DNA from: Defluviitaleaceae bacterium
Lineage (GTDB): Bacteria; Bacillota; Clostridia; Lachnospirales; WQUN01
Assembly (NCBI GenBank): GCA_009780585.1
Contig: WQZS01000014.1
Location: forward strand, 227 to 64,226
Direction of reading: 5' to 3'
DNA: 64,000 nucleotides
Both the position numbers and the translations under genes were made by a program. A model generated the notes under the pieces. It saw nothing but the letters and a program-made list of their open reading frames with translations. It searched no databases and was not told where the DNA came from. Position 1 is the stretch's first letter, and each line of letters opens with the position of its first letter. Shown here one piece after another: positions 2,365-35,364 of this stretch.

Positions 2365-3368
2365 ATCATCCCTGGTTCACCTCGGAGCAAACCGACGTCA
2401 ACCCCATCCTATCCTCGCGCATACGGCTCGCCCGCAACCTGCGCAAATACCCCTTCCAACAAAAATTAAACGCCCCCAACGCCGCCTACATGATACAGGA
2501 AATGCAGGAGGCGATTTCCGTATTTCACAAGCTGGACATGCAAAACCTGAGCGAAGCCGAACAAAAGGTCTTTTTGGAAAAGCATATCATTTCGCCCGAA
2601 TTCCTGCGCGGCACGCTGCCCCGCGGTTTAATGATCAGCGACGATCAGAACCTCTCCGTCATGCTTAACGAGGAGGACCATATCCGCATCCAATCCATGC
2701 AGGCGGGCGACGCGCTGGCCGAAGCGTTGTCGGCGGCCAACAAATTGGACGACCTCATTGAGGAACGCATGGAATACGCCTTCCACCCCGAATACGGCTA
2801 CTTGACCGCTTGCCCCACCAATACCGGTACGGGCTTGCGCGCTTCCTATATGATCCACCTCCCCTTTTTGGAGCGGACGGACCAGTTCAAATCCCTGCTG
2901 CCGATCATTTCGAAGTTCGGCATTACCCTGCGCGGCATCTACGGCGAAGGGACGGAGTCGATGGGCGGTATTTATCAGATTTCCAACCAAACCACCATGG
3001 GTAAAACCGAGGAGGAAATTATCCAGGTCTTGCAAAATATGACCATCAAGGTCATGGAACACGAAGCGCAGGCGCGGGACAAAATGCTGGGCACGCACCG
3101 CGCCGACCAGGAGAATATGGTGTACCGCGCGTACGGCGTATTGGCTTACAGCCGTAAAATCACCGCCAAGGAAGCGATGGATTTGCTTTCCGAAGTCCGC
3201 CTGGGATATTTGTATAACCTGCTGGACAAACCCAAGCCCGCCAAGCAAATCTACCAAATTATGATGGAAATCCAACCCGGCCACCTGCAACGCATCGCCG
3301 GACGGGAAATGGACGAAACCGACCGCGATTACGCGCGGGCGGAATATTTGAGAGAAATATTCAATTAG
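2361..3368 (+). CDS. mcsB: protein arginine kinase McsB (ATP:guanido phosphotransferase)
   Basis: Guanido-kinase signature CPTNTGTGLRASYMIHLP and the mcsA-mcsB-clpC gene order. Confidence 0.9.
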   Translation: MNHPWFTSEQTDVNPILSSRIRLARNLRKYPFQQKLNAPNAAYMIQEMQEAISVFHKLDMQNLSEAEQKVFLEKHIISPEFLRGTLPRGLMISDDQNLSVMLNEEDHIRIQSMQAGDALAEALSAANKLDDLIEERMEYAFHPEYGYLTACPTNTGTGLRASYMIHLPFLERTDQFKSLLPIISKFGITLRGIYGEGTESMGGIYQISNQTTMGKTEEEIIQVLQNMTIKVMEHEAQARDKMLGTHRADQENMVYRAYGVLAYSRKITAKEAMDLLSEVRLGYLYNLLDKPKPAKQIYQIMMEIQPGHLQRIAGREMDETDRDYARAEYLREIFN

Positions 3369-8622: not shown

Positions 8623-9701
8623 AAACAAGGATTTTGTTAACCGTATGCATCTTGCTATTTTTGGCGGGTTTCGGCGCGTGTTCACGCACACGGGAGGATC
8701 ATACCCCCGCATCTGTAAACCCGACCGCAACGCCTGCGGTGGTCGCTGTTACGCCGTCGGATTCCGGCGGAGACCCCTCCGAACCCCCCGCCATACCCGC
8801 AAATACGGGCAGCGGTATCCACGGCGCCATCCACCGCGTCACGTACGGCGAAAATACGGCGTACATCTTCGGCACCATCCACGGGGGTATGCCCGATTGG
8901 TTCCCGCTGGCGGACGCCGTGGAGGATGCCTTGCGCCGCGCGGACATCGTGCTTGTGGAGGTCGATGAAATCGGGCTTTCTCCCGAAGCCATGATGGATG
9001 CGGTAATGGGCGCGATATTTTTACCTGACGGCTTGACTTGGGTTGATTTTCTGCCGGAGGAACATTATAACCACATGGTGGAAATGATGGACGCCTGGGG
9101 CGTTTTCTATAGCGACGTGAATACCATGAACCCGTCATACCTCGTATGGCAATTGACCATGAGCATCGCGATAAGTCTGTCGAGCCTCGATGTAGGCATT
9201 GAGGCAAGCGTTGACAGTTATATCGCGTCCGTGGCGGCGCAGCGGGGCTTACCCGTCATCGGGCTGGAACCCATCGAACAGCAACTGGACATCCTGTACA
9301 ACCCACCCCTTGAGGTTGTGCTGGCGATGATTATGCACCTGCATCCGCCGGACGTTATGGTGGAGGATTTCCTGGAAAGCGGCGAGCTGACCCTTGACGA
9401 AATGGCGTATTACTATGCAGCCAACGATTTCGCACCCATTAACGAAAGTTTCGCTATTATCGTTGATTTTGACTGCCCTTATTTGGTGTATATGCGGGAA
9501 GTGGTCATGGATTGGCGTTCCACTTTCTACGCGAACGAAATTATTCGCTTGCTGCGCGAGACGGAGGAGCCGACGACGTTCTTCGCGGCGGTGGGATTGT
9601 CCCACGTCATCCGTTCGGGCGCGCACGAATTGTTCACGGACATCATCGAGCAATTGACCCTTGCGGGCTTCCATCCCGTGCCGATTTGGGAACAACGATG
9701 A
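8619..9701 (+). CDS. TraB/GumN family lipoprotein
   Basis: Lipobox LLFLAGFGAC and the FGTIHGG motif typical of TraB/GumN. ATGA overlaps with both pth and mfd. Confidence 0.6.
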   Translation: MKTRILLTVCILLFLAGFGACSRTREDHTPASVNPTATPAVVAVTPSDSGGDPSEPPAIPANTGSGIHGAIHRVTYGENTAYIFGTIHGGMPDWFPLADAVEDALRRADIVLVEVDEIGLSPEAMMDAVMGAIFLPDGLTWVDFLPEEHYNHMVEMMDAWGVFYSDVNTMNPSYLVWQLTMSIAISLSSLDVGIEASVDSYIASVAAQRGLPVIGLEPIEQQLDILYNPPLEVVLAMIMHLHPPDVMVEDFLESGELTLDEMAYYYAANDFAPINESFAIIVDFDCPYLVYMREVVMDWRSTFYANEIIRLLRETEEPTTFFAAVGLSHVIRSGAHELFTDIIEQLTLAGFHPVPIWEQR

Positions 9702-12700
9702 ACCACGCCTTACTCGCCCCCCTCGCGGAGTCGAAGGAATTTACCCGGGTACGCGCGGCGGTGCGCGGAAGGCAAACGGCGTGGTGTTCGGGCGTGGTAG
9801 GCGCGCAGAAGTGGCATTTGGCGGCGGGGTTGTTGCATGAACCGAACCGTCCGGCGTTGGTGATTGCGCCGTCGGAATTAAAAGCCAAGGAAATCCATCA
9901 GGACTTGTCGTATTTTTTCCCCGATTCCTGTCATTTTTACCCCGGGCGCGACATGATTTTTTACGCCGCCGACGTGAAGAGCGTGGATATTACGCGTCAG
10001 CGGTTGCAAGTGATTGATAAGTTAACGCGGACGGGGGAAGCCTCACCGATTGTCATCCTTTCCGCCGAAGCGCTGCTCGACAGGCTCGTGCCGCCGGAAA
10101 TATTCGCCACGTACAGCCAAGGGTTGAAGGTCGGCGACCGCGTCAAGCCCGAGGATTTGATCCGCAAGCTGGCGTCGATGGGGTATGAGCGCAGCGGCTT
10201 GGCGGAGGGAGCGGGGCAGTTCGCGCTGCGCGGGGGTATATTGGATATTTTCCCCGCGGTGGCGAGTTATGTGCCCCGGGACGGCGAAAAACAAACGCTT
10301 TACTTAAACCCGGCGCAGTCCCTGCGCATTGAATTTTTTGACGATGAAATCGACTCCATCCGCATCGTGGACGCGCTCTCCCAGCGTTCGGTCGAAAAGG
10401 CCGCGTCGTTTTTGGTATACCCCGTGCGGGAATTGGTTTTCGGGCCGAAGCGTCTGCGCCGCGCACGGGAACGGATCAACGCCGCGCGGGATATCCAAAC
10501 CGCCGCGCTTAAATCCAAAGGTAACCACAAGGAAGCGCAAACCCTCGCCGATACCATCGAAGAACAATTGATCCGCTGGTCGGACAGCCACGCTACGGGC
10601 GCGGACGCCTTCTTCCCGTTTTTCTACGAGGAGGAATGTAATTTATTGGATTATTTGCCCTCCGACACGGTGCTGTTCTTCGACGAACCGAACGCGGTTG
10701 CCATCCATATGGAAACCGTGCTGGCGGAATATACCGACAGTATTTCCCACCGTTTGATGGCGGGTCGGCTGCTGCCCGAGCAGGTGCATGTCACGCTCCC
10801 GTGGGCGCAGGTTTTACATAAGACGGCGGGGTTTGCGCGCGTGTTGTTCTCCTCCATGACGGGGACGCTAAGTGAATTTAACCCCGCTCCGCCGGAAATC
10901 CCCTTCCATGTGCGAAGCTCCTCTCCCTTACGGAAAAAACCAAGTGAATTAGCCGATGATCTGCGGGATTTACTTAAAAAATATAAGCGCGTGGTCATCC
11001 TCGCGGGTACGCGACGGCACGGGCAGCAATTGACGGACGCGATACGGGAATTGGACGTCCCCGCATACTTCGCGGGTGCGCTGGAGGGGTCGAAAGGGAT
11101 AGAACGTTCCGAAGGGGCGGCTTCGCTTTCAAGCGACTCGGAACGTTCCATCCCTTCGGGCATCCCCGCGGGCATCGTCACGGTCGCCCGCGGCGCGTTA
11201 TCGGAAGGTTTCGAATACCCGTCGCTTTCCCTCGCCGTAATTACCGACAAGGATTTATTTTCACAGGAAAAAACCCGCCGCCGTACGCGCCGCAAGCTCA
11301 AAAACGCGGAAAAGATCAACCACTTCACCGATTTGCGCATCGGCGACCATATCGTGCACGACAACCACGGCATCGGTGTTTTCCGCGGTATCGAGCAGGT
11401 GGTAAACGAAGGCTTGGCACGGGATTATTTAAAGCTGGAATACGCCGACGGCGGGCATTTGTACGTACAAACCTCGCAAATGGATTTGGTGCATAAATAC
11501 ATCGGCGGCACGCAGGAGGCGCGGCTCAACAAGCTGGGCGGCGCGGATTGGACGAAGGCGAAGGCTCGCGCGCGGCAAGCCGTGGAGATTATGGCGGCGG
11601 ATTTGATCGCGCTGTACGCCAAGCGGCGATCGAGCCAAGGGCATACCTTCGGCCCCGACACCGTGTGGCAAACGGAATTCGAAAGCCAGTTCCCCTATAC
11701 CGAAACCGACGACCAAGCCGCCGCCATCGAGGACGTAAAAGCGGATATGCAATCGCCGAAAGTGATGGACAGGCTCCTGTGCGGCGACGTGGGCTACGGC
11801 AAAACCGAAGTCGCCATCCGCGCCGCGTTTAAAGCCGTACAGGACGGCAAGCAAGTGGCGTACCTCGTACCCACAACGATCCTTGCGCAGCAGCATTACC
11901 AAACTTTCGCGAGCCGCATGAAGGACTACCCCGTTGCGGTCGAGCGGCTCTCCCGCTTCCAAACCCGCGGCGAGCAGCAAGCCACCCTTAAGAATTTGGC
12001 GAAGGGCGCGTCCGACATCGTTATCGGCACACACCGTTTGCTTTCAAAGGATGTACAATTCAAAAACCTCGGCCTAATCATCGTGGACGAGGAGCAACGC
12101 TTCGGCGTGGGCCATAAAGAAAAATTAAAGGAAATGCGCGCTGATGTGGACGTGTTGACGCTGACGGCGACGCCCATCCCGCGTACGCTGCATTTTTCCT
12201 TAACGGGTATCCGCGACATGTCCCTGTTGGACGAACCCCCCGAAGAACGCCAGCCCATCCAAACCTACGTGATGGAATCCAACAACGAATTCGTGCGCGA
12301 CGCGATCAACCGCGAGCTGGCGCGGGGCGGGCAGGTATATTATTTGCACAACCGCGTACGCTCGATCGCCGACGAAGCCATCCGCGTGGCCAACCTCGTA
12401 CCCCAAGCCAAGGTAGCCTTCGCCCACGGCCAAATGAGCGAGCACGAACTGGAAAACATCATGCACGACTTCGTTGCGGGGGACGTGGACGTGCTGGTAT
12501 GTACGACCATCGTGGAAACGGGGCTGGACATCCCCAACGTGAATACGATTATTATACAGAACGCCGATTTCATGGGACTCGCGCAACTTTACCAACTGCG
12601 CGGGCGGGTGGGGCGTTCGAGCCGTTTGGCCTACGCCTACCTCATGTACCGCCGCGATAAAATCCTGCGCGAGGACGCGGAAAAACGCTTGCAAACCATC

Positions 12701-13342
12701 CGCGAGTTTACCGAGTTCGGCGCGGGTTTTAAGATTGCCATGCGCGATTTGGAAATACGCGGCGCGGGCAACCTGCTCGGCGCGCAGCAACACGGCCACA
12801 TGGACGCCATCGGGTATGACATGTATTGCAAGCTCCTTGGCGACGCGGTGGCGGGTTTGAAAGGCGAAGCCCCGGCGGAAGCCTTCGAAACCACGATCGA
12901 CATCAGCGTGGACGCGTACATCCCCGACCGCTTCATCCCCGACGAACAGCAGAAGCTGGAAATCTATAAAAAGATCGCCCTAGTGGCAAACCGGCAGGAT
13001 TATTTCGACGTGCAGGAGGAAATCGAGGACCGCTTCGGCGAGCCGCCCCGCCCCGTGGTTAACCTGTTGGAAGTCGCGCTCATGAAGGCACACGCCCGCA
13101 ACATCGGCGTGATTTCCATTACGCAAAAAGGGCAGAATATCGTCATCGCCTTTAAAGCGGACGCGTCGGTCGATGTGGATAAACTGACCGCCATCGTCAC
13201 CAAGAACCCTTCGCGCTTGCTCTTTACCATGGCGCAAAACCCGTACCTCACCATTCGGGCGCACAAAGACGAAAAACCCCCGGAGGACGGGGGCCACAAA
13301 CGGATAAAAACGATACAGGCTTTATTGGAACGATTAAAATAA
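9698..13342 (+). CDS. mfd: transcription-repair coupling factor Mfd
   Basis: Helicase motifs (GDVGYGKTEV, DEEQRFG, TATPIPRTL) and a CarD-like region (GDHIVHDNHGIG). Start moved to ATG 9698, which overlaps the upstream stop; the track start at 9512 lies inside the previous gene. Confidence 0.95.
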   Translation: MNHALLAPLAESKEFTRVRAAVRGRQTAWCSGVVGAQKWHLAAGLLHEPNRPALVIAPSELKAKEIHQDLSYFFPDSCHFYPGRDMIFYAADVKSVDITRQRLQVIDKLTRTGEASPIVILSAEALLDRLVPPEIFATYSQGLKVGDRVKPEDLIRKLASMGYERSGLAEGAGQFALRGGILDIFPAVASYVPRDGEKQTLYLNPAQSLRIEFFDDEIDSIRIVDALSQRSVEKAASFLVYPVRELVFGPKRLRRARERINAARDIQTAALKSKGNHKEAQTLADTIEEQLIRWSDSHATGADAFFPFFYEEECNLLDYLPSDTVLFFDEPNAVAIHMETVLAEYTDSISHRLMAGRLLPEQVHVTLPWAQVLHKTAGFARVLFSSMTGTLSEFNPAPPEIPFHVRSSSPLRKKPSELADDLRDLLKKYKRVVILAGTRRHGQQLTDAIRELDVPAYFAGALEGSKGIERSEGAASLSSDSERSIPSGIPAGIVTVARGALSEGFEYPSLSLAVITDKDLFSQEKTRRRTRRKLKNAEKINHFTDLRIGDHIVHDNHGIGVFRGIEQVVNEGLARDYLKLEYADGGHLYVQTSQMDLVHKYIGGTQEARLNKLGGADWTKAKARARQAVEIMAADLIALYAKRRSSQGHTFGPDTVWQTEFESQFPYTETDDQAAAIEDVKADMQSPKVMDRLLCGDVGYGKTEVAIRAAFKAVQDGKQVAYLVPTTILAQQHYQTFASRMKDYPVAVERLSRFQTRGEQQATLKNLAKGASDIVIGTHRLLSKDVQFKNLGLIIVDEEQRFGVGHKEKLKEMRADVDVLTLTATPIPRTLHFSLTGIRDMSLLDEPPEERQPIQTYVMESNNEFVRDAINRELARGGQVYYLHNRVRSIADEAIRVANLVPQAKVAFAHGQMSEHELENIMHDFVAGDVDVLVCTTIVETGLDIPNVNTIIIQNADFMGLAQLYQLRGRVGRSSRLAYAYLMYRRDKILREDAEKRLQTIREFTEFGAGFKIAMRDLEIRGAGNLLGAQQHGHMDAIGYDMYCKLLGDAVAGLKGEAPAEAFETTIDISVDAYIPDRFIPDEQQKLEIYKKIALVANRQDYFDVQEEIEDRFGEPPRPVVNLLEVALMKAHARNIGVISITQKGQNIVIAFKADASVDVDKLTAIVTKNPSRLLFTMAQNPYLTIRAHKDEKPPEDGGHKRIKTIQALLERLK
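11091..11158. repeat. short hairpin element, diverged copy (SH-4), in frame inside mfd
   Basis: Arms CGAAAGGGATAGAACGTTCCGA and TCGGAACGTTCCATCCCTTCG (near-perfect inverted repeat) flank a 25-nt loop. The loop contains CGGCTTCGCTTTCAAGCGAC, 16/20 identical to the SH-1/2/3 core. Translated as GIERSEGAASLSSDSERSIPSG. Confidence 0.6.
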
Positions 13343-18107: not shown

Positions 18108-18827
18108 ATGCATATCACTATTATCGCAAACGGGACAATTGAAAATTACGCGGCTACGCGCAAAAGAATAATCGGCTCCGATTATTTCATCGCTTGCGAC
18201 GGCGGGCTGCGGCATTTCCCGTTGTTGGGTTTTACGCCCGATTGCATTATCGGTGATTTTGATTCCGCCCCGCCGGAGTTGCTTGCCGATTACCGCACAC
18301 GGGGTGTTCCTGTTGTTTCCTTCCCTTCGGAAAAAGATGAAACGGATTTGGAACTCGCCGTAGCGCACGCGATTGCGCTTAGCCCCGGGGGCGAGGGGTT
18401 CGGCGGTTGCACTCCCTTGAAGGCGAAGTCGGTCGTCGCAACCGCCGAACCCCTCGCCCCCTGCTCGATCGTTATCGTAGGTGCGCTGGGCGGCCGCATT
18501 GACCATGCGCTGGCTAATTTGCATGTGTTGGCGCAATGCGGAAACATCCCCGCCGAAATATGGGATGAATCGACAAGTATTCGGCTAATAAAAAATCATA
18601 TTAAATTATTTAAAAATAATTATAATACTTTATCCCTCATCCCCCTCACTTCCGATGTCACGGGCATCACTACAAAGGGTTTGTATTATCCCTTGCAAAA
18701 CGGAACCCTCCGAGCGGGGGAAACCCGCGGGGTCAGTAATCAATTTACCAACGAAACTGCTGAAATATCCGTTAAAAACGGTTTATTGCTTGCTGTTTTG
18801 TGCAAAACAAATCCACAAGGGTCGTAA
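18108..18827 (+). CDS. thiN: thiamine diphosphokinase, carrying a 25-codon in-frame hairpin insertion
   Basis: Motifs IACDGG, IGDFDS, KDETDLELA and GALGGRIDHALANL. The segment PGGEGFGGCTPLKAKSVVATAEPLAP is encoded by repeat SH-1. Confidence 0.75.
   Translation: MHITIIANGTIENYAATRKRIIGSDYFIACDGGLRHFPLLGFTPDCIIGDFDSAPPELLADYRTRGVPVVSFPSEKDETDLELAVAHAIALSPGGEGFGGCTPLKAKSVVATAEPLAPCSIVIVGALGGRIDHALANLHVLAQCGNIPAEIWDESTSIRLIKNHIKLFKNNYNTLSLIPLTSDVTGITTKGLYYPLQNGTLRAGETRGVSNQFTNETAEISVKNGLLLAVLCKTNPQGS
18387..18461. repeat. short hairpin element SH-1 (24-bp perfect stem + conserved core), in frame inside thiN
   Basis: GGGGGCGAGGGGTTCGGCGGTTGC pairs perfectly with GCAACCGCCGAACCCCTCGCCCCC. The loop core ACTCCCTTGAAGGCGAAGTCGGTCGT is the exact reverse complement of the SH-2 core. 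75 nt long. Confidence 0.9.
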
Positions 18828-18877
18828 TATTTAATATTAAAATATTAAATAACCCAAAAAAAGGAGTATACAAGTTC

Positions 18878-20314
18878 ATGTTTTCTTCTCATATCTCCCC
18901 TTCCCATATCTCCCCCCAATCCCTCATCGAAGCCTACGGTTCACCCCTATACGTCTACGACGAACGCACCTTCCGTGAAAAATGCCGCGCGATGAAGGCT
19001 TTCTGCCCCTACCCACATTACACGGTCAATTACGCTATCAAAGCCAATTCCAACCTCACCCTGCTTAAAATCGCCCGCGAAGAGGGCCTGCGCACCGACG
19101 TAAGCAGCGTAGGCGAGGCGATAGCCGCGCTCGCCGCGGGCTTCGACCCCAAGGACATCTTTTTCATCGTAAACAACGCCGCCCCGGAAGAACTACGCTT
19201 CGCCATCGAAAAAGGCCTACCCGTAAGCGTAGACTCCCTTTCACAACTGGAAACATACGGACGGCTATACTTGGAAACCAGGGAGGAAGAAGGGTTGCAA
19301 CGACCGACTTCGCCTTCAAGGGAGTGCAACCCTTCTTCCTCCCGGGGCATCAGGGGCATTGGGGGTATTGGAGGCATCGGTGATATTAGCAACATCTGCG
19401 TCCGCTTCAACACAGGCATAGGCGCGGGCCACCACCGTAAAGTAGTAACCGGCGGCGACGACACAAAATTCGGCGTATTACCCGCGGATATCCCAAAGGT
19501 TAAAAAATTATTAATGAAATACAACCTGCGCCTTTCGGGCATTAACCACCATATCGGCTCCCAATACGCGCAGGAACTATACCTCGTCGGCGCAAAGGCA
19601 TTGATCGACATCGCCCGCAATTTCGACGGCTTGGACTTCCTCGACTTCGGCGGCGGCTTTTATATCCCCTACCACAAAATGGACGGAGAAAAGCCCTTCG
19701 ACCTAAAACCCGTAGGCGAAGAACTGGCGCGTATGATGCGTGAATTTTCCATTGAATACGGCAAGCCCCTCACCTGCATGGTCGAACCGGGACGGTACAT
19801 CGCCGCCGAATGTGGGGTACTGCTGGGTACGGTCACGTCCGTTAAACGAATCGGCGCGGCACGCTATGTAGGTTGCGATATCGGGTTTTCTGCGTTCGCG
19901 CGGCCTACGCTGTACGACGCGCACCACGATATCATGGTGTACCCTGCAGCGGCGGGTAAGGAAACGGTTACAACGACCGACATCGCCCTCAAGGGAGTGC
20001 AACCGCTTCCTTCCCCGCCGCGTCATAGCGGTACATCCAACTTGTACCCTAGTAGGGCACAAGTTACCCACCTCGTCGGCAACCAATGCGAAACAGGCGA
20101 TTACGTCGCCAAAAACCGCCCGCTTCCGCCGCTTACCGAAGGTGATATCATCGCCGTGCAGGACGCGGGGGCGTACGGTTATTCCATGGCGTCGCAATAC
20201 AACATGCGGCCGCGCCCTGCGGAGGTTTTGATTTGCGAGGACGGCACGGTTAAATTAATCCGCCGCCGTGACACCCACGAAGGAATGTTGGCGAACATGC
20301 AGGGCTTATGCTAA
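18878..20314 (+). CDS. lysA: diaminopimelate decarboxylase, carrying two in-frame repeat-derived insertions
   Basis: YAIKAN (PLP Lys), DFGGGF, EPGR and CETGD motifs are intact. Start moved to ATG 18878 behind an AAGGAG RBS. The extra segments are encoded by SH-2 plus a 9-nt tandem repeat, and by SH-3 plus palindrome P-2. Confidence 0.88.
   Translation: MFSSHISPSHISPQSLIEAYGSPLYVYDERTFREKCRAMKAFCPYPHYTVNYAIKANSNLTLLKIAREEGLRTDVSSVGEAIAALAAGFDPKDIFFIVNNAAPEELRFAIEKGLPVSVDSLSQLETYGRLYLETREEEGLQRPTSPSRECNPSSSRGIRGIGGIGGIGDISNICVRFNTGIGAGHHRKVVTGGDDTKFGVLPADIPKVKKLLMKYNLRLSGINHHIGSQYAQELYLVGAKALIDIARNFDGLDFLDFGGGFYIPYHKMDGEKPFDLKPVGEELARMMREFSIEYGKPLTCMVEPGRYIAAECGVLLGTVTSVKRIGAARYVGCDIGFSAFARPTLYDAHHDIMVYPAAAGKETVTTTDIALKGVQPLPSPPRHSGTSNLYPSRAQVTHLVGNQCETGDYVAKNRPLPPLTEGDIIAVQDAGAYGYSMASQYNMRPRPAEVLICEDGTVKLIRRRDTHEGMLANMQGLC
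19281..19343. repeat. short hairpin element SH-2 (19-bp perfect stem), in frame inside lysA
   Basis: GGGAGGAAGAAGGGTTGCA and TGCAACCCTTCTTCCTCCC flank the 25-nt loop ACGACCGACTTCGCCTTCAAGGGAG. 63 nt long. Confidence 0.9.
19346..19387 (+). repeat. 9-nt tandem repeat (GGCATYRGG-like, about 4.6 units) inside lysA
   Basis: ggcatcagg ggcattggg ggtattgga ggcatcggt gatatt, translated as GIRGIGGIGGIGDI, immediately 3' of SH-2. Confidence 0.8.
19961..20029. repeat. short hairpin element SH-3 (22-bp stem, 3 mismatches), in frame inside lysA
   Basis: Arms GGCGGGTAAGGAAACGGTTACA and TGCAACCGCTTCCTTCCCCGCC. Loop ACGACCGACATCGCCCTCAAGGGAG has 2 substitutions relative to SH-2. 69 nt long. Confidence 0.85.
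20049..20075. repeat. 27-nt palindrome AACTTGTACCCTA-G-TAGGGCACAAGTT inside lysA (copy P-2)
   Basis: Same sequence family as 746-770, with one arm mismatch; 19 nt downstream of SH-3. Confidence 0.8.
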
Positions 20315-31518: not shown

Positions 31519-32928
31519 ATGTATAGGATCATTGCCCTACTTATCGGCTACGCCTTCGGGTGTTTGCAGAACGGTTACTATTTGTCCAAAAAAACCGCGG
31601 GCATCGACATACGCGACTACGGCTCGGGTGGCGCGGGTATGACCAACGTTACGCGCATACTGGGCACAAAACTCGGCGCGATTGTGCTGGCCGCCGACAT
31701 GGCGAAAGCGGCGGCGGCTTTTCTGCTGGCCTCATGGATATTCAATGGGGCTTTATTTGGTTGGCAGGGGGATTTGCATCCCGGCTTGTACGCGGGCTTG
31801 GGGGTCGTGCTGGGGCATGACTTCCCTTTTTATATGCGCTTCCGCGGCGGGAAGGGCGTAGCCTCCACGCTGGGCCTTATTCTTATGTTGGATTGGCGGA
31901 TTGCGCTGATTGTTTACGCCGTCATCCTCGCCATTGCGTTGATTATCAAGTACATTTCCGTAGCTTCACTCCTTATGTCGCTGCTGATCCCCGCGTTACT
32001 CGCCGTTTTCGGGCACGGTTGGGAAGTTATAACCGTCACTTCCTTCCTGGGCGCGTTGGCGTGGTTTATGCACCGGGGTAATATTTCCCGATTGATTAAA
32101 GGCACGGAGAGTAAGTTTTCCTTTTCCGGCGGTAAGCGTATGCCCGCTTCCAAAACCGTTTTTCCGCCACCCTTAACCCTCGATGACGAACTCCCAACCC
32201 CAAACTCCGGTAAATCATTGGAAATCGAAGCTAACGGGCAAATCTACGCCCGCATCCCCATCCGCACCCACGTCATTACCCAAGACGACGACGCGGCGGA
32301 TGTTTTTATCCCTTACCTCGCACCCCACGTACGCGAAGGCGACATCGTCTTTATTTCCGAACGCGCGGTAGCCTGCACACAATCCCGCGCTATCCCCATG
32401 CGTGACATCAAACCCCGCCGCTTGGCGGTTTTCCTCTCCCGTTATGTACAAAAAACACCCCACGGAATCGGCCTCGGCATCCCCGAAACCATGGAGATGG
32501 CCCTGCGTGAATGTGGGGTTATTTGCATCCTTTTTGCGGCGTTTGTATCCGCTGTCGGCAAGCTGTTCGGCAGCAAGGGCTGGTTCTACCGTGTTGCGGG
32601 GCCCAAAGCGCGGGGTATTGACGGCCCTTGCGATAATACCCTCCCCCCATATAACGAATACGTCGTTCTTGCACCCGACAAACCCGTGCGGGTTACGCAA
32701 ACCATCGCCGAAAGTATTTGCGTACACGTCGCTATCGTGGATGCCAACGATTTGGGCGTAAACCTGTTGGGCGCGTCCGACCCTAAACTGCGCGAATCAT
32801 TTCTTGCGGCGGTATTGCGCGACAACCCTTTGGGACAGTCGTCGGAACAAACGCCGTGCGGGATTATACGGGTGTCGCCGCAGGGTGCGGGGGAAGGTTC
32901 CAACGCCGCGCTTAACGAAATCGGGTGA
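31519..32928 (+). CDS. plsY: fusion protein: glycerol-3-phosphate acyltransferase PlsY + C-terminal F420-0:gamma-glutamyl ligase-like (CofE-fold) domain
   Basis: N-terminal 200 aa carry PlsY motifs (GSGGAGMTNV, GHDFPFYMRFRGGKGVA). The C-terminal 260 aa carry REGDIVFISERAVACTQSRA and VDANDLG, resembling the F420_ligase family. The last ~17 codons and the stop codon lie inside hairpin repeat LH-A. Confidence 0.6.
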   Translation: MYRIIALLIGYAFGCLQNGYYLSKKTAGIDIRDYGSGGAGMTNVTRILGTKLGAIVLAADMAKAAAAFLLASWIFNGALFGWQGDLHPGLYAGLGVVLGHDFPFYMRFRGGKGVASTLGLILMLDWRIALIVYAVILAIALIIKYISVASLLMSLLIPALLAVFGHGWEVITVTSFLGALAWFMHRGNISRLIKGTESKFSFSGGKRMPASKTVFPPPLTLDDELPTPNSGKSLEIEANGQIYARIPIRTHVITQDDDAADVFIPYLAPHVREGDIVFISERAVACTQSRAIPMRDIKPRRLAVFLSRYVQKTPHGIGLGIPETMEMALRECGVICILFAAFVSAVGKLFGSKGWFYRVAGPKARGIDGPCDNTLPPYNEYVVLAPDKPVRVTQTIAESICVHVAIVDANDLGVNLLGASDPKLRESFLAAVLRDNPLGQSSEQTPCGIIRVSPQGAGEGSNAALNEIG

Positions 32929-33058
32929 TGATCGGCTCCGTTCGCGTAGTGCTTGCGTAGGTTGCAAGCACCCTACGCCAAGCACGTAACGCTCGCGTTC
33001 GCCGCTAATCATCCGATTTCGTAGGCGCGGTTTATGGAACTTCCCCCGCACTCTGCGG
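32878..33058 (-). repeat. long hairpin repeat LH-A (181 bp), inverted relative to LH-B/LH-C
   Basis: Terminal arms CCGCAGGGTGCGGGGGAAGGTTCCA and TGGAACTTCCCCCGCACTCTGCGG. Internal blocks CGAAATCGGGTGAT and ATCATCCGATTTCG, CGGCTCCG, and central GGTTGCAAGCACC. Orientation was set by the asymmetric GCGGCGAACG versus CGGAGCCGA blocks. Confidence 0.9.
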
Positions 33059-33144
33059 ACGCGCAACATAAAAATTCAACCAATCCGGAATTGTAAATAT
33101 TTAAGCATTCATGAATGCAAGTATTATTTATTAGAGGAAAAATC

Positions 33145-33771
33145 ATGAAAAAAATCAAACCCTCGAATGAAAATGAGATGGTTTATGAGTTTCTTAAAAT
33201 GGAATTCGATTCCGACCGATTCAAAAAACAAATAGAAACCGTATTGGAAAAAATGTGTATCACTAAGGATATTATTACGAATGGCAATATCATGTGTGAA
33301 AAAGAAAATACCTTAAGAATAAAAATATTAAAACGCTTCAGAGGGTACAAAGACGAAGAACTGTTTGAAAACTTCCCGACAAATGTTGAATGGATATGGA
33401 CTGAATTTGAAAGGGAAGACCTTCCGAAAATCATATATATAGAATACAGCTATTGGAATGAACTTTCCAATTATACGGGTTCGCCCCTCGAAGCGGCTAA
33501 GACGATTTTATCCGGGAAAACCATTTATGATGTACCGAACGACAGCGCGATTGAGGGCGCGAAAAAACTAAGGGAAGGGCATAAATTCCCTCCAATGATA
33601 TTTTTAATGGATGAAAGCGAAAAACGTTATTTAATCCTCGAAGGGCATGGCAGGATGACCGCATACGGGCTTGCATCCGATTTATTTCAAAATGTATCGG
33701 TTCTGCTTGGGTATTGCGATAGTGAAGAATTGGGTAAATGGTACGGTGAAATGCCGAAGCGCCCAAAATAA
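33145..33771 (+). CDS. hypothetical protein (208 aa) with a possible ParB/Srx-like motif near the C-terminus
   Basis: AT-rich ORF with an AGAGGA RBS before ATG 33145. I recognise no family. LILEGHGRMTAYG loosely resembles the ParB/sulfiredoxin (D/E)GxHR..A motif. Confidence 0.55.
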   Translation: MKKIKPSNENEMVYEFLKMEFDSDRFKKQIETVLEKMCITKDIITNGNIMCEKENTLRIKILKRFRGYKDEELFENFPTNVEWIWTEFEREDLPKIIYIEYSYWNELSNYTGSPLEAAKTILSGKTIYDVPNDSAIEGAKKLREGHKFPPMIFLMDESEKRYLILEGHGRMTAYGLASDLFQNVSVLLGYCDSEELGKWYGEMPKRPK

Positions 33772-33782
33772 AGAGGTGGTTT

Positions 33783-34619
33783 ATGGTTACGCAATATCTT
33801 GATGGAATAAAAATAAATTTAAAAAGTCCGTTTAATTTAGATTTTATTAATAATTATGGTCATGTTTTTAAAGTGTTTGACACACAATCTTCGGGAAATT
33901 TATGTTTCGGTGTGGAAAAAGCAGGAAAGCGATATTTTCTTAAATTCGCGGGCGCGGACACATTGGACTATTCCGACACACTCGTTATCGAAGATGCAAT
34001 AACAAGACTTAAATTTACGGTACCAAAATATAAGGATTTATATCACCCGTTGTTGATTAATCAAATAGACGCAGACGAAATCGGCGGTGGGTTCATAACC
34101 GTTTTTGATTGGTTTGATGGGGAAAGCTGCGGTTATCCTCAAAAAGAAGCGTGTAAAAGGTTTATGGCGCTTCCGGACAAAGAAAAACTGCGCGTATATG
34201 ACGGTATACTTGAATTCCATGCTCACGTAGCCGAACGCGGTTATGTGGCGATAGATTTTAACGACCAGGCTACATTATATAATTTTACCAACGGAAATTT
34301 CGCCATTTGTGATATCGATTTTTATGCAAAACAATGTTATATGTGCCACATGGGTGCGGTGTGGGGCGATCCTTCGCTTAAATCGCCCGAAGAAAACAGA
34401 ATCGGCGGCGTAATTGATGAAATAAGTAATGTTTATGCAATGGGAGCTACAGCGTTCGTATTTTTCGCAGAAGACGATAAAAATTCACGTACAAAGTGGT
34501 CTTTAAGTACCTATTCATATGAAGTCGCAAAAAAATCCGTTAGCGAACAGCGAAGTCAAAGACAACAATCAATCCGCAACTATATAAACGAGTGGAATAA
34601 TGCGAAAAGCTGCCGATAA
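33783..34619 (+). CDS. eukaryotic-like protein kinase-fold protein
   Basis: AGAGGTGG RBS. Motif order is YFLKFAG (VAIK-like Lys), HAHVAERGYVAIDFNDQATLYN (catalytic-loop-like), ICDIDF (DFG-like), KSPEE (APE-like) and DEISNVYAMGATAF. Confidence 0.55.
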   Translation: MVTQYLDGIKINLKSPFNLDFINNYGHVFKVFDTQSSGNLCFGVEKAGKRYFLKFAGADTLDYSDTLVIEDAITRLKFTVPKYKDLYHPLLINQIDADEIGGGFITVFDWFDGESCGYPQKEACKRFMALPDKEKLRVYDGILEFHAHVAERGYVAIDFNDQATLYNFTNGNFAICDIDFYAKQCYMCHMGAVWGDPSLKSPEENRIGGVIDEISNVYAMGATAFVFFAEDDKNSRTKWSLSTYSYEVAKKSVSEQRSQRQQSIRNYINEWNNAKSCR

Positions 34620-34645
34620 TAAACATTAATCGCAGGAGGAAAAGA

Positions 34646-35128
34646 ATGAACAGAATTGATATAGTGAGGGAAGCTATTACCGATTTGTTGTTTGAAAGAA
34701 TAAACATAAGGAACAGGTTAATCACGCATACTCATTTAACCGGCGTTGCCTTGCTGTGTGGGTTGATAGCTAAAAAAAGAGGAGCAAACATAGAACTGGC
34801 GGTAATGACAGGATTACTGCATGATTTATACAGCTTTATTACTGAAGGCGTTCAACCCCTTGAAGATAAGATTGCGAAGTCAAATAAAGATGCAGATGTA
34901 GCCCGCGAAATTTTAGACAGGCTCAATATTACAACAACCGATGAAACCGTTATTATTTGCAATGCTGTATGCTATAGAGGCACAGGCGAGTATTCGGAAT
35001 TAGGTCAAATTTTACTTGATGCAAATTTACTCCAACACGCCTATCACAACCCGCTTTTACCAATAAAGTATGGAGAAACAAGGGTTGTTGAACTGCTGGT
35101 TGAATTTGGAATCAGCAACACAGAGTAG
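34646..35128 (+). CDS. HD-domain phosphohydrolase (small, single domain)
   Basis: AGGAGG RBS. THTHLTGVALLCGLIA...LLHDLYSF provides the H...HD metal-binding signature. Confidence 0.6.
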   Translation: MNRIDIVREAITDLLFERINIRNRLITHTHLTGVALLCGLIAKKRGANIELAVMTGLLHDLYSFITEGVQPLEDKIAKSNKDADVAREILDRLNITTTDETVIICNAVCYRGTGEYSELGQILLDANLLQHAYHNPLLPIKYGETRVVELLVEFGISNTE

Positions 35129-35179: not shown

Positions 35180-35364
35180 GTACGGGGAAGGTTCCATAAG
35201 CCGCGTCTACGAAATCGGGTGATTAGCGGCGAACGGCGGGCTTATGTGCTTGGCGTCGGGTGCTTGCAACCGACGCAAGCACTTGCCCGACGGAGCCGAT
35301 CATCACCCGATTTCGTTCAACGCGGCGTTGGAATCTTCCCCGTACGGGGCTCTTCCCCGTACGG
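35180..35364 (+). repeat. long hairpin repeat LH-B (166-bp hairpin + 19-bp duplicated terminal arm)
   Basis: GTACGGGGAAGGTTCCA and TGGAATCTTCCCCGTAC terminal stem. Blocks CTACGAAATCGGGTGAT and ATCACCCGATTTCGT, GCGGCGAACG and CGGAGCCGA. CTTCCCCGTACGG is repeated at the 3' end. Confidence 0.9.

Follow-up and report, generated by a model that had tools for sequence, protein, structure and literature searches.

How short hairpins with a common core come to lie in frame within intact metabolic genes is the question raised by a 64,000-nt stretch of Defluviitaleaceae DNA (contig WQZS01000014.1; hereafter the window, meaning the whole stretch), in which an initial annotation had marked three such elements, SH-1 to SH-3 (SH, short hairpin element), in thiN and lysA. 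Defluviitaleaceae is a family in the Lachnospirales, Clostridia, and metagenome-assembled genomes (MAGs) of this kind originate from higher-termite guts (PMC7024585). We consider it probable, at roughly 60%, that these three elements and a fourth, SH-4 in mfd, belong to a low-copy family of palindromic, non-autonomous DNA repeats, hitherto undescribed, in termite-gut Defluviitaleaceae. On this reading the family is new, its kind (a selfish palindromic repeat) is known, and its stems are unusually well preserved. The locus itself appears authentic: the thiamine pyrophosphokinase (TPK) and LysA proteins are 100% identical to Defluviitaleaceae MAG proteins, the window can be placed on a 78-kb ENA contig, and 6.3 kb spanning SH-1, SH-2 and SH-3 recur with 100% identity in a JGI assembly made independently, which answers the doubt that the arms might be products of assembly.

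Hairpin copies in thiN, lysA and mfd

The features concerned are the following, L with a number denoting a related locus:

18108 to 18827, plus strand: thiN, encoding TPK, host of SH-1; intact open reading frame (ORF) with GDFDS and KDETD motifs present.
18387 to 18461, minus strand: SH-1, a 75-nt hairpin in thiN with perfect 24-bp arms and a 27-nt loop.
18878 to 20314, plus strand: lysA, encoding diaminopimelate decarboxylase, host of SH-2, SH-3 and the palindrome P2; intact ORF.
19278 to 19346, plus strand: SH-2, a hairpin in lysA insertion site 1 with a 25-nt loop.
19949 to 20021, plus strand: SH-3, a decaying hairpin in lysA insertion site 2 (24+25+24 nt).
9698 to 13342, plus strand: mfd, encoding transcription-repair coupling factor, host of SH-4; corresponds to L057 821-4465 at an offset of 8877.
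11092 to 11158, plus strand: SH-4, a diverged fourth copy, in frame in mfd.
20040 to 20064, no strand assigned: P2, a 25-nt perfect-type palindrome, ACTTGTACCCTAGTAGGGCACAAGT, 18 nt 3' of SH-3 in lysA.

The 26-nt core, ACGACCGACTTCGCCTTCAAGGGAGT, occurs three times in the window, at 18411-18436 on the minus strand (0 mismatches), 19300-19325 on the plus strand (0 mismatches) and 19973-19998 on the plus strand (2 mismatches), against a chance expectation of 0 (100 shuffles). This bears out the shared core of the initial annotation, with SH-1 as its exact reverse complement and two substitutions in SH-3. The perfect arms reported for SH-1 (24 bp, 18387-18410 and 18438-18461) and SH-2 (19 bp) were likewise recovered. 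SH-1, with its core on the minus strand, folded as DNA at -36.6 kcal/mol (z -9.0) and scored 87 bits with a covariance model. The SH-2 stem can be drawn as 19 perfect bp (19281-19343) or as 22 bp with one mismatch (19278-19346), and the element folded as single-stranded DNA at -25.5 kcal/mol (z -6.8) with a score of 85.5 bits. SH-3 has 3 mismatches in its 24-bp arms and 2 substitutions in its core (-21.9 kcal/mol, z -4.4, 76 bits). Its previous placement at 19961-20029 was 10 nt too high, and that segment does not fold (z +0.6); the count of three stem mismatches stood, but the arms are 24 bp long and not 22 bp. SH-4 was detected by a relaxed core scan, an inverted-repeat scan and the covariance model (57 bits, E 5e-10); its loop is identical to the core at 18/25 positions and its stem of about 20 bp contains one mismatch (z -5.0). 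The structure-aware scan that had been proposed thus returned exactly 4 copies in the window and at least 30 matches in related loci. SH-1, SH-2 and SH-3 have an AC...TGCAACC closing variant in common.

Pfam domains are complete in TPK and LysA, and ortholog alignments revealed that the invariant pyridoxal phosphate and active-site residues of LysA and the catalytic residues of TPK are all present, in agreement with the earlier statement that the flanking catalytic motifs are intact. Insertion was also in frame and stop-free as described, the TPK and LysA frames being open across all three hairpins; SH-1 is read as the peptide PGGEGFGGCTPLKAKSVVATAEPLA. TPK has 25 extra residues in the window and 32 in a sister lineage, between AHAxxLS and PxSIxIxGALGG, and the insertion is missing from eleven other TPK orthologs (205-220 aa) and from a PDB alignment. 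Since the 25 extra residues equal the 75-nt hairpin, the whole element, arms included, is the inserted unit. Both LysA sites are positions of length variation among orthologs (hypervariable loops); at site 1, SH-2 is absent from most orthologs, which read LNPGG. The suspected lineage-specific insertion therefore appears in TPK as a gain in two sister lineages only, and in LysA at sites of variable length. An AlphaFold model of LysA has a confident fold (pLDDT, the per-residue confidence score, about 90) in which residues 146-169 and 360-391 are coil with pLDDT <50, and the LysA hairpin inserts are predicted to sit in permissive, disordered surface loops.

Several other length changes were observed in lysA. 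The permissive loop that holds SH-2 also shows a local tandem expansion: a short GGCATT-like repeat immediately 3' of the hairpin (19347-19395), encoding GIRGIGGIGGIGDI, exceeds its counterpart in the sister lysA by 27 nt. At the 5' end of the gene (18885-18914; SHISPSHISP), a stretch of 15 nt is duplicated in tandem, CTTCTCATATCTCCC / CTTCCCATATCTCCC, a feature missing from orthologs. Other long insertions occupy the LysA loop of SH-2 in other lineages, at L059 10465-10564 and L056 10380-10480. The former is a hairpin of about 100 nt, imperfect, with G-rich arms and a nested palindrome, AACGCGAAGCGTT; it was rejected as an SH homolog, its covariance-model score not being significant. The latter is an AT-rich 24-nt tandem duplication between remnants resembling outer SH-2 arms. 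As to gene order, thiN is not adjacent to lysA in the sister lineage, where two extra small genes flank the Fer4 gene downstream of lysA (L004 1998-2534 and 3549-4112); judged by eye, the 178-aa product resembles a membrane protein and the 187-aa product a P-loop kinase.

A dispersed family of DNA palindromes

Representative genomes and metagenomes were scanned for the core, and stem length was measured around each match. The outcome was bimodal, with stems of 19-29 bp in termite-gut contigs (Ga0123353, Ga0123352, Ga0136643 and Ga0131853) and in the sister MAG Lab288P3bin217 (WRDO01), and of at most 8 bp in all other samples (soil etc.), whose core matches are due to chance. Removal of duplicates left 25 distinct copies of 59-81 nt, most of them not a multiple of three in length, and hairpin copies were found solely in termite-gut Defluviitaleaceae sequence; the similarity thus extends well beyond one locus. 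Within about 270 kb from SH-bearing lineages, 24 of the 28 perfect stems of at least 14 bp were SH elements (one loop-variant copy included) and the other four were short-loop, terminator-like hairpins, and no G-rich hairpin devoid of the core was found. A phage origin was rejected as no SH core was found in viral contigs. Membership of a known structured RNA family was rejected as well, as an Rfam scan gave no family at gathering score and its best matches were generic, microRNA-precursor-like hairpins (28 bits vs gathering scores of 78-90).

Eleven genic loci with verified genes comprise ThiN, LysA (two copies), Mfd, CinA, AddB (two copies), TrmD, RqcH/FbpA, MiaB and a polyol dehydrogenase, and about 11 further loci are intergenic, in 5' leaders or just past stop codons. 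Genic copies lie in either orientation and between them use every one of the five stop-free frames (the sixth contains TGA), giving five unrelated, frame-specific peptides (PLKAKSV, RSLEGEV, DRLRLQG, QRPTSPSRE and TTDIALKGV). This use of five frames and both orientations indicates a nucleotide-level rather than a protein-level element and, together with the intergenic loci, makes frame and length filters on survival instead of properties of the element. Accordingly, the multiple-of-three length once ascribed to the elements holds for the net insertion of genic survivors and not for the family. ORFs remain open across every genic copy, and the peptides are linker-like, Gly/Glu/Arg-rich from the G-rich arm and Pro/Ser-rich from the C-rich arm. 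Copies tend to cluster: one 9-kb part of the window holds 4 of them, and a 5-kb part of L003 another 4. The suggested comparison of coding and intergenic copies and of frame usage therefore yielded about half of each and five frames; these figures, about 25 dispersed copies and the lack of an Rfam match agree with the proposal of a comparable but distinct palindromic family in a Firmicute.

A conserved centre between inverted repeats is also what hairpin-adapter read-through would resemble. An artefact of that kind or an assembly chimera is nevertheless, like a selected peptide module, extremely improbable: the window locus is identical in two assemblies, about 25 loci occur in four metagenome datasets and an NCBI sister MAG, orthologous copies differ by compensatory changes and ORFs run open through all genic copies, while the five different frames rule out a peptide module.

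All elements have the same layout, in which a G/A-rich 5' arm and a conserved inner stem (GGTTGCRRC-like) lead into a 25-nt apex followed by the complementary C/T-rich 3' arm. The apex is nearly invariant and non-palindromic (rC-GAnCGACTTCGCCTTCAAGnGAG). Relatedness of the arms was assessed in a gapless alignment of 26 copies, in which the 5' side is G/A-rich and the inner base is GGTTGCRRC, GGATTCCGGC or GGTTCGGC-type; the outer arms are copy-specific and the common part is the inner 7-9 bp. The arms had been called unrelated between copies, but they are homologous, with a G/A-rich 5' side and a common inner GGTTGCRRC / YGCAACC-like base.

Pairing is well preserved. Double changes affecting both sides were seen at 24/24 stem pairs, 90.7% of cells were paired vs 40-52% in slid-partner controls, and the observed covariation was reached by 0/500 shuffles. 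Mismatches outside the closing pair comprised 6 G.T vs 5 A.C/C.A, with no strand bias; as there is no wobble bias for either RNA strand, the symmetry is that of DNA, which points to a DNA-level palindrome. Stem complementarity is kept at the DNA level, on both strands. Of the earlier picture of a conserved loop on free-to-vary but always paired arms, the maintained hairpin is upheld by the covariation at every pair and by compensation between orthologs; the arms, however, are not free to vary, being homologous and evolving slowly in situ.

Turnover, slow stems and rival explanations

Comparison of closely related lineages uncovered considerable turnover. The sister lineage lacks most of SH-3 owing to a 96-nt in-frame deletion (window 19961-20056), which spares the outer 12 nt of the left arm. 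In the SH-1 ortholog (L039 1341-1446), 5 nt of the loop are swapped for a 26-nt hairpin, and in the copy at L045 5856-5961 4 nt are swapped for a different 25-nt hairpin at the same position, after GACTTCGC; the two nested hairpins each add a net 21 nt, are unrelated and were not found elsewhere in the sequence examined. Copies L003c and L003d are missing from the closely related L052, despite one flank being 97% identical, and the L002 copy in AddB is missing from L036. The arms of this L002 copy nearly match those of a neighbouring copy 600 nt away in the same AddB gene. In a third lineage (L056), lysA and mfd hold decayed remnants only. SH copies are thus gained, decayed and deleted between close lineages.

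A selfish palindromic repeat could behave in this manner. SH elements land in either orientation, in a gene or between genes and often near an existing copy, and a genic copy survives only where the frame is kept, no stop codon is introduced and the site is a permissive, disordered surface loop. Copying would be carried out by a trans-acting enzyme encoded elsewhere, which may read the folded single strand through its inner stem and conserved apex; by analogy, we infer an enzyme like the HUH/Y1 proteins acting on REP and IS200/IS605 hairpins. Selection against stems with mismatches, templated correction of one arm by the other, or the two together may preserve the pairing.

The sister lysA allele initially raised another origin for the arms, namely that snap-back synthesis during insertion had copied the target flank in inverted orientation, because the allele has GCGGCGGGGAAA at the position of the SH-3 left arm (GCGGCGGGTAAG) and lacks the rest. 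The neighbouring palindrome P2 bears on this. P2 is a member of a second palindrome family (ACTTGTGCCCTAnTAGGGCACAAGT, 12+1+12 nt), separate from SH, with copies at 746-770 and 20040-20064 of the window and at L036 669-693, the last with compensatory changes (ACTTCTGACCTAtTAGGTCAGAAGT); the copy at 746-770 is an in-frame part of a corrinoid-activase-like ORF (71-1297) and coincides with an interruption of that ORF's family match. Of P2, the right arm alone survives in the sister lysA, whose deletion runs from the SH-3 hairpin into the P2 hairpin. As P2 is an independent repeat of which one arm is left, that allele derives from a deletion and does not represent an empty site. Moreover, the AddB ortholog without a copy lacks both arms, both arms are extra in TPK relative to 11 orthologs, and arms of separate copies are homologous to each other. 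A snap-back origin of the arms is refuted by this evidence from P2, AddB, TPK and arm homology, and we give it almost no weight.

Several results weigh against the selfish-repeat reading. No transposase or nuclease was found near clustered copies, Pfam scans of the neighbours giving housekeeping proteins, and a transposase adjoining the clusters was accordingly dismissed (the neighbours are Peptidase_S51, AcrB, GrpB, a histidine kinase and similar). A tblastn search with IS608 TnpA (an approximate query) for a Y1 transposase/RAYT returned nothing credible in 465 kb, which is only a fraction of either genome. Junction repeats measure just 2-3 nt (ACC, AAT and CCC, at three junctions), with no clear target-site duplication, and would be explained equally well by microhomology-mediated deletion; some of the copy-less comparison alleles are deletion derivatives. 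The architecture is reversed with respect to a classical MITE (a miniature transposable element with inverted repeats) or REP, the apex being conserved and the outer arms varying, and simple copy-and-diverge fails to explain near-identical apices on unalignable outer arms. Finally, the element evolves more slowly than synonymous sites (rates are given below), at which an inert selfish insertion should be at least as fast; this slowness indicates that some constraint or correction acts in situ.

Other candidates were discarded during these searches. A weak tblastn match beside the L027 SH copy (3269-3353) proved to be a MazEF-type module: right after that copy, at L027 3368-3983, a MazEF/PemK-like toxin-antitoxin pair lies between dnaK and dnaJ. 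No full-length parent insertion sequence (IS) with a split core was found. Flank words (CCGTCAAC..CCGTT-like and ACAACA-like), which turn up beside many copies, were abandoned as element ends, as they are also present in copy-less alleles and elsewhere. Separately, inverted repeats of about 110-126 nt at 32877-33002 and 35229-35339 of the window flank an AT-rich 2.3-kb island (33115-35128) and also match the end of L005. The island contains three ORFs, by eye an unknown protein, a kinase-like and an HD-domain-like one, and no transposase was seen in it.

The rate comparison rests on two pairs identified by synteny, SH-1 with its ortholog at L039 1341-1446 and SH-2 with its ortholog at L004 1052-1136, the latter pair differing solely by a compensatory G:C to C:G change. 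Over the SH-1 arms and SH-2, 4/117 sites differ between window and sister (3.4%), as opposed to 281/1620 sites in the flanking genes (17%, p 1e-5 vs element) and 175/540 third codon positions (32%, p 5e-13 vs element). Other orthologous pairs trend alike, though they were found via an intact core, and for this reason their apex conservation is discounted.

Slow stems and uniform apices keep two rivals alive. The first is a host-level or long-term symbiotic (REPIN-like) signal, a stem-loop (of single-stranded or cruciform DNA, or of RNA) selected within essential genes and bound at its apex by a dedicated protein. It would account for the two synteny-found copies evolving at a rate 5-10x below that of flanking codons and third positions, and it is consistent with strict compensatory changes in orthologous pairs, with stems that stay near-perfect even where the loop has drifted (SH-4), and with 21/23 apex positions being almost invariant on outer arms beyond alignment. 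However, copies are scattered over unrelated genes in both orientations, their placing follows no logic, close relatives delete them (SH-3), interrupt them (the SH-1 ortholog loop) or let them decay while keeping the host gene, and related Defluviitaleaceae lineages are without the family; part of the apex conservation is ascertainment bias, several pairs having been found via an intact core. We therefore regard a host signal as unlikely.

The second rival confines movement or homogenisation to the apex (core plus short inner stem), which would be copied into the tips of hairpins already present or spread by short-patch gene conversion or template switching, such that a young, uniform loop is carried on old, diverged arms. 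Identical apices on unalignable outer arms would follow from this, and the two sister copies with 4-5 loop nt replaced after GACTTCGC suggest that the apex is a replacement hot spot. SH-1 further resembles an L007-type arm (GGGGTTCGGC) with another GGTTGCGAC-core unit inside, and the AC...TGCAACC closing variant is common to three window copies. Yet the 270 kb surveyed held no core-less hairpins as recipients, which led us to reject insertion of the core into pre-existing hairpins; the SH-1 insertion relative to orthologs is the entire 75-nt hairpin, the nested hairpin sequences did not recur in the sequence examined, and neither a split core nor a full-length parent was seen. An apex moving by itself is, in our estimation, a distinctly poor prospect, and the selfish repeat, copied as a whole hairpin, is the reading we prefer.

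Relation to known repeats and significance

In-frame palindromic repeats are best known from Rickettsia, an alphaproteobacterium, whose Rickettsia palindromic elements (RPEs; RPE-1 to RPE-10, reportedly from Ogata et al. 2000) are about 100-150 bp long and in some cases end in a CGTC tag. SH resembles them in being dispersed, both intergenic and in frame in housekeeping genes, in adding a short peptide at permissive positions, in having no known associated transposase and in the conservation of copies between related species. Compared by description, SH differs in its 59-81 nt length, its clostridial host, its long, near-perfect, G-rich stem, its conserved 25-nt apex and the lack of a consistent tag. 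In behaviour SH is closest to RPEs and to genic REPs (PMC3733652). REPs have stems of 5-13 bp and loops of 2-20 nt with a terminal GTAG or CGTC, the stem being conserved and the spacer variable, and are associated with RAYT (Y1 HUH) transposases; REP dimers (REPINs) form hairpins of 70-110 nt (PMC3733652). Like REPs and REPINs, SH forms hairpins, is sometimes genic and persists vertically over long times, and REPs are thought to be read as folded single strands. Unlike them, SH has stems of 19-29 bp, variable outer stems and arms that are not themselves palindromic. Measured against the REP stem and loop pattern, SH is no REP, its long stems differing between copies and its 25-nt loop being conserved; neither GTAG nor CTAC was found at the hairpin foot in any copy, and CGTC lies within 8 nt of the 3' foot in about 4/25.

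The closest match in architecture is BIME-1/RIP (RIB) of enterobacteria, in which inverted palindromic arms surround a conserved non-palindromic centre, with an integration host factor (IHF) site in BIME-1. Compared by description only, these elements are, unlike SH, extragenic, with arms made of REP units whose sequence is conserved. Bacterial MITEs (Correia, ERIC, Coxiella QMITE1/2) are small, non-coding, dispersed and hairpin-forming, may overlap ORFs and be conserved between strains, and have 2-3-nt direct repeats in the case of QMITE1 (PMC5896051, PMC10969869). Their terminal inverted repeats are conserved and match a parent IS while the interior varies; in SH, which is far shorter, conservation runs the other way. 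SH was accordingly not classed as a MITE, its outer arms being copy-specific and no parent element or split core having been found. The attC sites of integrons have conserved R''/L'' and L'/R' boxes at the base and a variable centre, and mark gene-cassette boundaries near intI. SH is not of this type either: the centre is conserved and not the base, copies reside in housekeeping genes, and the neighbourhood is without an integrase. HUH nick-site hairpin origins (geminivirus, circovirus and plasmid single-strand origins) are present once in each replicon and their loops are short; by description, SH resembles them in that the loop is invariant while the stem covaries between relatives. SH is also similar, by description, to the GC-cluster/'byp' elements of mitochondria, mobile GC-rich hairpins inside coding regions. 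Ribosomes skip 'byp' elements, whereas genic SH copies are in frame and stop-free and need no bypass.

SH thus represents RPE-like behaviour with a different architecture in free-living gut Clostridia. With 24/24 pairs covarying, the family provides a natural data set of DNA-level compensatory evolution within protein-coding genes, and it marks permissive loops in LysA, TPK, Mfd, AddB, TrmD and MiaB. It also counsels caution in annotation, since 20-40-aa 'lineage-specific inserts' in MAG proteins may be repeat elements. Should the slow stem evolution be borne out, the family could point the way to a hairpin-reading enzyme not yet discovered. Were the host-signal explanation true, the hairpins would not be inert selfish DNA but a REPIN-RAYT-like partnership or a domesticated site, which would explain why copy-specific stems evolve 5-10x more slowly than synonymous sites of the host enzymes.

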